Source: an uncultured Clostridia bacterium (GTDB lineage Bacteria; Bacillota; Clostridia; Christensenellales; UBA1242). Taken from it: 64,000 nucleotides of DNA. The number at the start of each line of letters is the position of its first letter. Within the stretch, counting starts at the first letter, position 1. Both the position numbers and the translations under genes were made by a program. The notes under the pieces are model-generated. The model worked only from the letters and a program-made list of their open reading frames with translations. It was not told the DNA's origin and did not search any database. Location of the stretch: positions 6,183-70,182 of the forward strand of contig CALWEM010000022.1 in the NCBI GenBank assembly GCA_944377315.1. The letters are read 5' to 3'. Below, piece by piece: positions 35,913-49,342 of the stretch.

Positions 35913-36738
35913 ATGGAAAAAGGAATCAGTTATTTTTTTTGGTTATGAAATCAAAAAGAAAGAAAAAATAAGATTAATAAAAGAAGCTGGCTTTACGAGT
36001 GTTATCACAAGTGCCGACAAAAAATTTGAAAAACAAAATGGCAGAATTTCACTGCAAGTAAGGTTAATGAAAAAGTTTGGACTTAAACTTTCCAGCCTTC
36101 ATTTTAGATATGATGTTGACAAGTTGCATTATTTTTGGGAAGAAGGAAAAATCGGTGAAAAATTAAAGAAAAATTTGATTAAAGATGTCAAAATTGCCAA
36201 AAAATATGGTTTTAAGTGTGTTGTCGTGCATCTTTTTGGAAAATATTCGGAAATTGGAGAGCAAAGACTTTTGGAAGTTTTGGATGTTTGCGACAAATTG
36301 AATATTCCGCTTGCTGTTGAAAACATTAATGACAAGGAGACTTTTGTTAAGACTTTTGAAAAAATTAAACACGATATGTTAAAGTTTTGCTATGATTCTG
36401 GGCACGGAAATATTTTTGACAAGGACTTTGATTATTTGAAAGAATATCAAGACAAATTGATTTGCCTTCATTTGCACGATAACAATGGCTTGAAAGACCA
36501 TCACACCATAACAAAATATAGTGGGAGCATTGACTGGAAGAAAATTGCCAAAATTTTGGCGGAGAAACCAGATATTTCGCTTGACTATGAAATTTTGCAA
36601 AGAAGTGAGAATATTCAAGAAAATCCCAAAATCTTTTTGGAAGAAGTCTATGAACAAGCAACAAATTTGGAAAAACTTATTGAGTTATATCAGAAAAATG
36701 GTTGGAGTGATGAAATATCTTCTAAAAAAGAAAAATAA
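35913..36738 (+). pseudogene. Xylose-isomerase-like TIM-barrel (sugar phosphate isomerase/epimerase family) gene interrupted by one extra base in a T8 run
   Basis: ATG 35913 has SD AGGTG and reads MEKGISYFF, then hits TGA at 35946. After T8 (35933-35940) the next coordinate frame reads GYEIKKKEKIRLIKEAGFTSVITSADKKF...LM and continues into ORF 36067-36738 (VVHLFG, LAVENIN, DSGHGNIF, LHLHDNNGLKDHH). T7 would give one intact ORF of about 274 aa. Confidence 0.65.
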
Positions 36739-46974: not shown

Positions 46975-48078
46975 ATGGAACATATTTCACTATACAGAAA
47001 GTATCGTCCAAAGACATTTGATGAGGTTATTGGGCAGGACCATATAACCAAGACACTGGAAAACCAAATTATGAACAATCATATTGGCCACGCTTACCTA
47101 TTCACTGGCACGCGTGGCACAGGGAAAACGAGTATTGCTAAAATTCTCGCTCGTGCTGTGAATTGTCTAAATCCAGTGAAAGGTTCGCCGTGCGGTAAAT
47201 GTGAAAATTGTTTGAATTTGCAAAAGGAAAATGACATCAATATCATTGAAATTGACGCTGCATCAAACAACAAAGTTGATGATGTCCGAGAAATCAGAGA
47301 AAAAGTGAAGTTTTTGCCGGTTGGTGCAAAATATAAGGTATATATCATTGACGAAGTGCATATGCTCACAGACTCTGCTTTCAATGCACTTTTGAAAACT
47401 TTGGAAGAGCCACCTGCACACATAATCTTCATTTTGGCGACCACAGAAGTGCATAAACTTCCACAAACAATTCTGTCACGCTGTGTTCGATTTGATTTTC
47501 ACTTGGTTTCAGTGGAAGATTTGATGAAGCATCTACGAAAAATATTTGACAAAGAGAACATCAAGTGTGATGAAGAAAGTTTGAAGCTTATTGCCACAGC
47601 CGGAGAAGGAAGCGTGCGTGACACACTTTCAATTGCCGACTCGATTGCGTCATATTGTCAAAACGATATAACAAAAGACGAGACTTTGAAAATTTTGGGC
47701 ACGACAGACTATGAACTCATTTTGAACTTTTTTGACGCTTTGAGAGAAAAAGAAGTTGGAAAAATTTTGGAACTTATTGACCAAATTGAAAAAGAAGGCA
47801 AGAATTTGGCAGTCTTTTCCAAAGATGTCAGCAAGCACGCGAGAAATTTGTTGATAGCAAAAACTTGCACTGACGCGAACAAAATCTTGAATTTGCCAGA
47901 TGATGTGTTTGAAAAATTCGCTTCACAAGCAGAGCAATTCAATGAGAAAGATTTGATAAGATATATGCAAGTCTTTTCATCGGCAGAAAATGAACTTCGC
48001 TACACTTTGTCAGTGCGCTTACTTTTGGAAACCACGGCACTCACTGCTTCGCTTGGTTTTGAAGTAAAAAAAAACTGA
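46975..48078 (+). CDS. dnaX: DNA polymerase III gamma/tau subunit; the zero-frame product covers domains I-III only (367 aa)
   Basis: Walker A GTRGTGKTS, zinc module CGKCENC, Walker B IIDEVHMLT, and LLKTLEEPP with SRC (TILSRCVRFDF). It terminates at AAA AAA AAC TGA immediately after an A9 run. Confidence 0.9.
   Translation: MEHISLYRKYRPKTFDEVIGQDHITKTLENQIMNNHIGHAYLFTGTRGTGKTSIAKILARAVNCLNPVKGSPCGKCENCLNLQKENDINIIEIDAASNNKVDDVREIREKVKFLPVGAKYKVYIIDEVHMLTDSAFNALLKTLEEPPAHIIFILATTEVHKLPQTILSRCVRFDFHLVSVEDLMKHLRKIFDKENIKCDEESLKLIATAGEGSVRDTLSIADSIASYCQNDITKDETLKILGTTDYELILNFFDALREKEVGKILELIDQIEKEGKNLAVFSKDVSKHARNLLIAKTCTDANKILNLPDDVFEKFASQAEQFNEKDLIRYMQVFSSAENELRYTLSVRLLLETTALTASLGFEVKKN
48066..48074 (+). 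other. dnaX: A9 homopolymer: candidate slippage/recoding site (or assembly indel) joining the two dnaX reading frames
   Basis: Nine consecutive A at 48066-48074. The zero-frame stop is at 48076-48078. The -1 frame is open from 48063 to 48413. Confidence 0.5.
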
Positions 48079-48413
48079 AAATTGAAGAAGATGTTTCCAA
48101 ACTTTCGCCAAAGAATGTTTGGGGGAAAATTGTTTTGTTTTTGAAAGAGAACAAAAAAGTTGCACTTCACGTGGCGTGTGGCGATATCACAAATGTTTCG
48201 ATTGAAGGAGAAAAACTTGTTGTTCGTTCATCAGATGATTTTCTCATAAGCATATTGGAAGACGGAAGAAGGGACCTTGAAAATGCCATTCGTTGGCAAG
48301 GGCTGAACTTAACTTTACTTATTGTCAAGTTTGAGAGTAAAGAACAAATGCAAGAAAAGGATATATTAAAATTAAGTCGACTTTTTGGTGACAAACTGAA
48401 AATTGAAGATTGA
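48066..48413 (+). CDS. dnaX: dnaX C-terminal (tau-type) domain encoded in the -1 frame relative to dnaX
   Basis: The -1 frame reads (K)KKLKIEEDVSKLSPKNVWGKIVLFLKENKKVALHVACGDITNV...ILKLSRLFGDKLKIED. This resembles the C-terminal domain of Firmicutes DnaX. The ORF track shows only a TTG-initiated 92-aa fragment (48135-48413) with no SD. Confidence 0.65.
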   Translation, partial: KKKLKIEEDVSKLSPKNVWGKIVLFLKENKKVALHVACGDITNVSIEGEKLVVRSSDDFLISILEDGRRDLENAIRWQGLNLTLLIVKFESKEQMQEKDILKLSRLFGDKLKIED

Positions 48414-48426
48414 AAGGAGAAGAAAA

Positions 48427-48753
48427 ATGGGATATAATTTTGGCGGTGGATTTGGTGGTTTTGGCGGTGGCAATATGCAACAGTTGATGCGCCAAGCGCA
48501 AAAAATGCAAGAAGATATGAAAAGAACAAGAGAAGAAATTGATGCAACAGAATATTCTTCCTCTGTTGGGGGTGGAATGGTGGAAATCACAATGCTGGGC
48601 AACAAAACAGTGAAAAGTGTGAAAATAAAGAAAGAAGTGGTTGACCCAGATGATGTTGAAATGTTGGAAGATTTGATTATTTCAGCCACAAACGACTGCT
48701 TGAAAAAAATTCAAGATGATGAAAGAATGAAATTGCCAAATATGGGATTGTAA
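48427..48753 (+). CDS. ybaB: Nucleoid-associated protein YbaB/EbfC
   Basis: The start is refined to ATG 48427 (MGYNFGGGFGG...NMQQLMRQAQKMQEDM) after AAAGGAGA. The order dnaX-ybaB-recR is conserved. Confidence 0.9.
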   Translation: MGYNFGGGFGGFGGGNMQQLMRQAQKMQEDMKRTREEIDATEYSSSVGGGMVEITMLGNKTVKSVKIKKEVVDPDDVEMLEDLIISATNDCLKKIQDDERMKLPNMGL

Positions 48754-48754
48754 T

Positions 48755-49342
48755 ATGTTTGATGAACCGATTGAAAAACTTGTGGAATATTTTAGACAAC
48801 TTCCGGGTGTTGGTGCGAAAACAGCGCAACGCTATGCTTTTTATATTATCGAAAACAGTGCCGAAAAAGCAAATAATTTTGCAAACGCCATAAAAGAAGT
48901 CAAAGAAAAGGTGAAATTGTGTTCGGTGTGTGGCAACTACTCCACGCAAGACATCTGTCCGATTTGTCAAAAGCGAAACCGAAAACTGATTTGTGTGGTG
49001 CAAGAGCCAAAGGATATCGTTTCAATGGAAAAAGTGAAATCTTTTGATGGGGTTTATCACGTTTTGTTTGGCACGATAAGTCCACTTGAAAATCGCGGGC
49101 CAAATGATATTAAAATCAAAGAACTTTTGTCACGCATTGAAAATGACAAAGTGGAAGAAGTCATAATGGCAACAAATCCAGATGTTGAAGGTGACGCCAC
49201 GGCGATGTATATCTCCAAGCTTTTGAAACCATTGGGTGTTAAAGTGACTCGGTTGGCACAAGGAATTTCAATGGGAAGTGACATTGAGTTTGCTGATGTG
49301 GTGACTTTGGAGAAAGCACTTGAACAGCGTCAAGAAATTTAG
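48755..49342 (+). CDS. recR: Recombination protein RecR
   Basis: HhH motif LPGVGAKTAQRYAF, C4 zinc finger CSVCGNYSTQDICPIC and a Toprim segment with DVEGDATAMY. Confidence 0.95.
   Translation: MFDEPIEKLVEYFRQLPGVGAKTAQRYAFYIIENSAEKANNFANAIKEVKEKVKLCSVCGNYSTQDICPICQKRNRKLICVVQEPKDIVSMEKVKSFDGVYHVLFGTISPLENRGPNDIKIKELLSRIENDKVEEVIMATNPDVEGDATAMYISKLLKPLGVKVTRLAQGISMGSDIEFADVVTLEKALEQRQEI

Follow-up and report, generated by a model that had tools for sequence, protein, structure and literature searches.

How is full-length tau made from a dnaX gene whose reading frame is broken in the DNA? The question is raised by a 64,000-nucleotide stretch of an uncultured Clostridia bacterium (GTDB lineage Bacteria; Bacillota; Clostridia; Christensenellales; UBA1242; GenBank assembly GCA_944377315.1, contig CALWEM010000022.1, positions 6,183 to 70,182 of the forward strand; the whole stretch is called the window below). 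In the window, a run of nine A's (A9) divides dnaX into a zero-frame open reading frame (ORF) with a short, gamma-like product and a -1-frame part encoding a tau-type C-terminal domain. The same split recurs across a clade of gut Clostridia around Candidatus Caccovivens, and the comparisons described here make it very likely that tau in these organisms needs some form of programmed recoding. As for the mechanism, several features of the run and its surroundings lead us to favour transcriptional slippage that adds one A to the mRNA as the probable route, over -1 ribosomal frameshifting. The dnaX gene of this organism and of the whole clade would then be a recoded gene.

The zero frame ends GAA GTA AAA AAA AAC TGA. 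In translation, the -1 frame stays open from 48063 until it meets TGA at 48411-48413, and after the run it encodes 112 codons (LKIEEDVSKLSPKNVWGK...LSRLFGDKLKIED) that comprise a short linker and a domain of ~95 aa with the conserved motif set WGK...ACGDIT...WQG...FG. An initial annotation, made from the letters of the window, had placed the split at the same coordinates, which we could confirm (Table 1). Because the TGA at 48060-48062 shuts the -1 frame, a switch from the zero to the -1 frame is productive only within 48063-48075, 13 nt that are essentially the run itself, and A9-C at 48066-48075 is our proposed site of a +1 A transcriptional slippage or a -1 ribosomal shift. The conceptual fusion of the two parts aligns end to end with the NCBIfam model NF011523 (residues 5-478 on model positions 3-473/474), and full-length relatives with ten A's (A10; 478-485 aa) cover 98-100% of it. 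Clamp-loader domains I-III were recognized by Pfam PF13177, PF22608 and PF12169 (residues 21-354, PF12169 ending at 354) and by NCBIfam TIGR02397 (dnaX_nterm; 9e-135; residues 4-356). The run sits ~10 codons past the end of this match, in agreement with its earlier placement at the end of domain III.

Table 1. Features of the split dnaX locus, in coordinates of the window
Feature	Position	Strand	Remarks
dnaX zero-frame ORF	46975..48078	+	367 aa, gamma-like, clamp-loader domains I-III, ends ...GFEVKKN*
-1-frame TGA just 5' of the run	48060..48062	+	from translation; closes the -1 frame upstream
Proposed slip site, A9 then C	48066..48075	+	zero frame GT-A AAA AAA AAC; nine A's 48066-48074, C 48075
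Zero-frame stop TGA directly 3' of the slip site	48076..48078	+	ends the gamma-like product
tau-specific -1-frame part	48075..48413	+	112 codons, stop TGA 48411-48413
Conceptual full-length tau	46975..48413	+	479 aa via one extra A or a -1 shift; junction ...GFEVKKKLKIEEDVSK...
Local RNA hairpin	48094..48125	+	-12.9 kcal/mol, z -1.74; begins 19 nt after the run; judged incidental

What does the -1 frame encode? The 112-aa tail alone matched no Pfam or NCBIfam family (a weak Homez match being noise), and a PDB sequence-profile search with the 112-aa domain returned chance matches only. When the domain profile was searched with hmmsearch against uninterrupted Clostridia DnaX proteins, it found the C-terminal ends of L007 (4.6e-8) and L041 (7.5e-6), and hhalign against a profile built from the C-terminal 115 residues of 46 in-frame DnaX proteins gave 95.9% probability at an E-value of 5.5e-9. 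An AlphaFold2 model based on a 38-sequence alignment reached a mean pLDDT (predicted local distance difference test) of 84, with values above 90 for residues 11-85, and has the topology alpha-alpha-beta-beta-alpha-alpha-beta-alpha. The best PDB matches of this model in Foldseek are DnaA domain I structures (4tps, with template-modelling (TM) scores of 0.51/0.64 and a root-mean-square deviation of 2.8 Å; 2jmp; 2e0g), followed lower in the list by DciA (8a3v) and E. coli tau domain V (2aya, 5fku_E), all with weak E-values of 0.01 or above. The predicted DnaA-domain-I / tau-domain-V-like fold is supportive, not decisive. It is because of the profile comparisons, rather than the fold match, that we regard the domain as homologous to DnaX C-termini, as the initial annotation had proposed.

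Both the A run and the frame split are kept in relatives. Among the best 120 protein clusters matching the conceptual fusion (61-99% identity; from ENA, Logan, NCBI and JGI assemblies), 111, at 77-99% identity and from many independent assemblies, are split, 101 of them ending in ...KKN* and 10 reading ...KKNW... through a change of TGA to TGG; the other nine continue in frame as ...KKKL.... The two closest relatives, 99% and 93% identical, likewise end in KKN*, and KKN is constant among relatives in which the two preceding residues vary (DV, QV, DA, EV, ES, EA, NA). We also searched metagenome contigs using nothing but a C-domain alignment, so that loci were chosen regardless of frame and gene-calling bias was avoided. 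All 40 of the loci holding both parts carry the C-domain in the -1 frame behind NNA AAA AAA AAC, with N-part identities to the window of 49-92% (down to 56% in full-length N parts).

At the nucleotide level, all ten positions of A9C are invariant in 38 non-redundant relatives (2.0 bits each, against 0.1-1.6 bits in the flanks), and the run is never shorter than nine. Its first A is the wobble base of a variable codon (Val, Ala, Ser, Leu, Glu), yet invariant. Elsewhere in the same genes AAG accounts for 28% of Lys codons and TTR for 40% of Leu codons, but the run and the codon following it are free of synonymous changes to either. The base 3' of the run is C in 38/38 of these relatives and never G, a base that would be conservative there. 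T in place of the C at 48075, or of its equivalents in L002-L124, would be synonymous in both frames (AAT Asn; TTG/TTA Leu). Among nine split genomes, the synonymous substitution rate (dS) around the run is ~1.6, that is, synonymous sites are saturated, and the ratio of non-synonymous to synonymous rates (dN/dS) stands at 0.10 in the -1-frame domain and at 0.064 in the N part. The remaining two frames of the -1-frame stretch carry 6-14 stops. The -1-frame domain is under purifying selection.

The overlap of the two frames, 13 nt in the window, ranges from 10 to 91 nt in relatives, with the run inside it every time. The zero-frame stop (TGA, TAA or TAG) follows AAC directly or 1-2 codons on, and a +1-frame stop lies within 1-10 codons of the run in the relatives examined. 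In a minority of relatives (P0006, P0008, P0009, P0011, P0023, P0025, P0040, P0051, P0084), TGA after AAC has become TGG and the gamma-like product is longer by 6 or 22 residues (KKNWKLK...); the layout thus does not depend strictly on a zero-frame stop right behind the site.

Neighbour joining on the N parts places all dnaX genes with the run in a single clade, whose named members are Candidatus Caccovivens and "Clostridia bacterium" metagenome-assembled genomes (MAGs) from human, chicken and ruminant gut. The sister sequence L006 and all outgroups (Christensenellaceae-like MAGs, Lachnospiraceae, Bacillus) have an ordinary in-frame dnaX without the run. Among the GTDB N-part matches listed, the run-bearing clade is represented by L001-L003 only; the rest are distant DnaX genes, whose in-frame loci were reused as comparison sequences for the profile searches and the tree. 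Within the clade we found no uninterrupted gene that lacks the run: the seven in-frame sequences whose DNA was examined have A10 or, in L130, A11. These in-frame versions are isolated single tips, each next to split A9 sequences, and several come from short or low-coverage contigs (L128 has a coverage of 2.4). Because A10 and A11 are scattered in this way, the tree indicates that A9 is the ancestral and maintained state, in-frame A10 being either a sporadic, short-lived allele or an error. The GTDB representative of Ca. Caccovivens faecavium (L001, DVLK01000080.1; A10) is 98.99% identical over 2.8 kb to the A9 strain L087, with a single gap in their alignment; the difference is either a true polymorphism of tract length or a fault in the assembly of the representative genome. 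L130 (Logan SRR34056290, run at ~1406) reads CAA AAA AAA AAA TTG in frame, A11 followed by T, and is the sole sequence with a base other than C after the run; its contig is 3.1 kb long and an error is possible.

How, then, would tau be reached? Standard decoding of the A9 allele would stop at the TGA after the run and give the 367-aa gamma-like subunit, and full-length tau (479 aa, with the C-terminal domain) would come only from expression events that gain one base at the run. Under transcriptional slippage, RNA polymerase would slip on the T9 template and add a tenth A to the mRNA, which would then be translated normally. The predicted junction, ...EVKKKLKIEEDVSK, is also the one expected from a ribosomal shift on A_AAA_AAA. 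Messages with 8 or 11 A's would be read in the +1 frame to an early stop and likewise yield gamma-like products. The comparisons thus support the short default product and the long form of about 480 aa, made by an extra A or a -1 slip, that had been suggested for this gene.

Several features lead us to favour slippage by RNA polymerase. The full run of at least nine is conserved, which is more than a heptamer; L003 and L123 have A10 in the same phase as the split A9 genes; there is no conserved downstream structure and the upstream Shine–Dalgarno (SD)-like excess is weak; and, as in Thermus, the two non-tau frames run into stops after 0-10 codons. In addition, A/T runs of nine or more are otherwise avoided in the window. 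Of all homopolymers in the 64 kb the dnaX A9 is the longest, and no other A/T run reaches nine; there are 51 runs of length 7, 16 of length 8 and 1 of length 9, so that the step ratio drops from ~0.3-0.4 to 0.06 at length 9. Avoidance of such runs is taken by Baranov et al. 2005 (PMC1088944) as a sign of slippage-proneness at nine.

One of the closest known systems is the dnaX gene of Thermus thermophilus (Larsen et al. 2000, as summarised in PMC1088944 and PMC5009743). According to these summaries, nine A's in the sense strand after the clamp-loader domains allow one gene to yield tau and gamma. Stops are near in both non-tau frames there as here (zero frame 0-2 codons and +1 frame 1-10 codons in the Clostridia), and the homopolymer of roughly nine or more (here A9, and A10 in L003 and L123) is enough to fill the RNA-DNA hybrid. 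As summarised, the polarity is reversed: the templated A9 encodes tau and the slipped message gamma in Thermus, whereas here the templated A9 would encode gamma and the message with one extra A tau. The Thermus run is followed by G (GAG AAA AAA AAA GCC TGA), the one here by C. According to the summaries cited, slippage in Thermus was demonstrated by experiment, whereas here its occurrence, its level (RNA polymerase or ribosome) and the tau:gamma ratio are inferred.

The reversed layout has a precedent as well. Antonov, Coakley, Atkins, Baranov and Borodovsky (2013, NAR 41:6514; PMC3711429) described two-ORF dnaX genes that need recoding for tau, an arrangement restated by Atkins et al. 2016 (PMC5009743). 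They reported 17 genes from 12 genera in which the DNA itself carries a -1 break. Poly-A is present in twelve of the genes: nine have A10 then G (Chlorobium, Flavobacterium, Cytophaga, Capnocytophaga, Coraliomargarita, Prosthecochloris, Pelodictyon), Chloroherpeton has A9, and two Chlorobium species have A8 and A7. Transcriptional realignment was inferred by analogy with Thermus (PMC3711429). The locus described here is of the same type: dnaX lies across two adjacent ORFs (46975-48078 and 48063-48413) with a -1 break in the DNA, a poly-A tract at the junction and the gamma stop soon after it (0-2 codons here). Tau would be the recoded product, the downstream ORF being its selected C-terminal part here, and in both cases the layout is conserved across genera and the mechanism deduced is transcriptional realignment. 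It differs in that the published cases are in Chlorobi, Bacteroidetes and Verrucomicrobia and mostly have A10-G, whereas the Clostridia have A9 and an invariant C, and in that the tau extension here is minimal, a linker and a single domain of 112 aa. None of the genera which that paper names (PMC3711429) is a Firmicute, and our literature search on dnaX frameshifting in Clostridia returned no description of this lineage.

Some observations weigh against transcriptional slippage as the mechanism, and several of them point to the ribosome. The run holds, in every sequence, two overlapping X_XXY_YYZ heptamers in the correct phase (A_AAA_AAA and A_AAA_AAC), and a ribosomal contribution to tau has to be allowed for. 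The phase of the run is invariant and -1 is the only direction seen, features that Antonov et al. 2013 (PMC3711429) read as a sign of ribosomal frameshifting. Simple slippage leaves the invariant C after the run unexplained, given that T there would be silent, and the run-avoidance evidence comes from one 64-kb window, with 1 run observed against ~5 expected. In programmed -1 ribosomal frameshifting, the mRNA would be a faithful A9 copy and a fraction of ribosomes would slip back on A_AAA_AAA or A_AAA_AAC into the tau frame, perhaps helped by the zero-frame stop that lies directly 3' of the site in most sequences. If the slip occurred with tRNA-Asn on A_AAA_AAC, Asn would be kept and the junction would be ...EVKKNLKIEEDVSK (...EVKKNLKIEE...). 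E. coli dnaX has -1 programmed frameshifting at the equivalent place, and the invariant C yields A_AAA_AAC, the motif used by the insertion sequence (IS) IS1, for which no established frameshift stimulator is known (PMC4066793). As here, the longer insA-insB' fusion of IS1 needs a -1 event on an A run ending in C, and many IS elements use A9 runs through slippage (PMC1088944). These are, however, low-level transposases of mobile elements, whereas dnaX is an essential chromosomal replication gene.

Against the ribosomal route stands the composition of the site and its surroundings. A heptamer would not need all nine A's and the C, and the preceding wobble A is invariant as well. E. coli dnaX resembles the Clostridia gene in giving two products that differ by the tau C-terminal part, with a Lys-codon slippery site followed by the stop of the short form. 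It uses A_AAA_AAG with an SD-like element ~10 nt upstream and a stimulatory stem-loop a few nucleotides downstream, and makes tau in the zero frame. The Clostridia gene lacks AAG, a conserved stem-loop and a clear SD, and its tau would be the shifted product: the E. coli-type heptamer is absent from all 38 non-redundant sequences, whose site is A_AAA_AAA / A_AAA_AAC. In E. coli both of these heptamers are far less shift-prone than A_AAA_AAG (Atkins et al. 2016, PMC5009743), and essential tau would therefore hang on a low-efficiency event.

Candidate stimulators were sought on both sides of the run. An imperfect hairpin that the initial annotation had suggested at 48097-48122 does fold locally (Table 1). 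It is not conserved in 14 close relatives, where 67.6% of cells pair, a value that shuffles match, and covariation is absent; we reject it as a frameshift stimulator. The stretch from +1 to +45 after the run in 36 relatives has a mean minimum free energy of -5.3 kcal/mol and a mean z of -0.29, equal to control windows, and an Rfam scan of 47900-48450 gave no match. Upstream, anti-SD duplex energy averages -4.1 kcal/mol versus -2.6 kcal/mol in control windows, and 25% of windows reach -6 or below versus 12% of controls; this slight excess, which would speak for a ribosomal shift, is variable in position, is confounded by Gly/Glu/Asp codons that can explain it, and was not accepted as an SD-like element. 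Taken together, we consider -1 ribosomal frameshifting the main rival of transcriptional slippage, though a rather unlikely one. The transcriptional and ribosomal routes give the same protein, and both could act together.

Why should the C be invariant? Kinetic tuning of slippage by the incoming cytidine triphosphate (CTP), or a role of AAC in the ribosomal A site, are speculative answers. One improbable extension is that A9-C acts as a tuned rheostat, in which the wait for CTP, or AAC decoding beside the stop, would set how often the tenth A is gained. The tau:gamma ratio would then track nucleotide supply or growth state, with a gamma-like default and sub-stoichiometric tau in a Firmicute lineage.

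Could the tract vary in the DNA instead? Slipped-strand mispairing might produce A9 cells making gamma only and A10 cells making tau, with the frame restored in the genome. The in-frame A10/A11 alleles, sporadic at no fewer than seven places in the clade, and the near-identity of the A10 genome L001 with the A9 strain L087 would fit such heritable variation. We nevertheless judge it highly improbable. A9 is the assembled consensus at each of the 40 metagenome loci and in 111 of the 120 best protein clusters, and the A10 tips, some of which may be errors given their short or low-coverage contigs, never form a lineage of their own. A cell without a strongly selected domain of an essential replisome subunit would probably be unfit, and A9 could therefore not be a stable majority allele without recoding.

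There is hardly any chance that the C-domain is instead translated separately, as a small protein made by initiation or re-initiation after the TGA and acting in trans. Gene callers do list a stand-alone "hypothetical protein" of 100-125 aa here, the form in which databases hold the C-domain ORF, and an ATG lies 6-18 nt behind the run in some relatives. Across relatives, though, the start codon is not conserved: along the -1 frame, the first ATG, GTG or TTG falls anywhere from -39 to +120 nt from the run, and ATG is often missing. The first such start in the window, TTG 48135, has no SD and would delete the invariant WGK motif. The linker between run and domain stays open and in phase in all sequences, and in E. 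coli tau tethers the polymerase to the clamp loader covalently. Because a separate start for the C-ORF is unsupported, the C-domain must be reached from the dnaX frame at the run.

That A9 is a one-base undercall of an ordinary A10 gene, or that dnaX is decaying, has a practically negligible probability and is rejected on comparative grounds: although a few A10 relatives exist and the window holds another homopolymer frame break, the same A9 split is present in dozens of independent assemblies from different pipelines, in relatives from 99% and 93% down to 56% identity, and the downstream dN/dS excludes decay. The other break, a T8 at 35933-35940, had been cited in the initial annotation as a reason to take an undercall seriously. 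It is real in the window; unlike the dnaX split, it is private. By one extra T it breaks a PF01261 sugar-phosphate isomerase/epimerase gene (35913-36738), which with T7 reads MEKGISYFFGYEI... uninterrupted to the stop at 36738. Because this gene is intact in the 97%-identical relative P0241 and in ~120 others, the break is private to the assembly, either as a homopolymer error or as a recent mutation. One assembly thus holds both a conserved programmed break and a private homopolymer break, which makes it useful for quality control.

The genes around dnaX are pgk and tpiA upstream and ybaB (48427-48753) and recR (48755-49342) downstream, in the same order in relatives. In P0012 (626 aa), a gene call fuses the upstream tpiA (PF00121) with dnaX, probably through a missed stop or another frame problem.

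The reversed dnaX layout is already known from other phyla and is new only for this Clostridia lineage, Ca. Caccovivens and its relatives; its range now takes in Chlorobi, Bacteroidetes, Verrucomicrobia and a deep, abundant Clostridia clade. For annotation, hundreds of gut-metagenome assemblies list a 364-389-aa "gamma/tau" protein and an unrelated 100-125-aa "hypothetical protein", two entries that should be merged into one recoded gene. The clade also offers a natural experiment, in which the single-base change from A9 to A10 swaps the templated product. Since A9 has been kept while synonymous sites are saturated, we argue that the product ratio, beyond the ability to make tau, is under selection. 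Cultured Firmicutes are generally held to make tau only; if the reading given here is true, a gamma-like subunit would be the default product in a Firmicute lineage.

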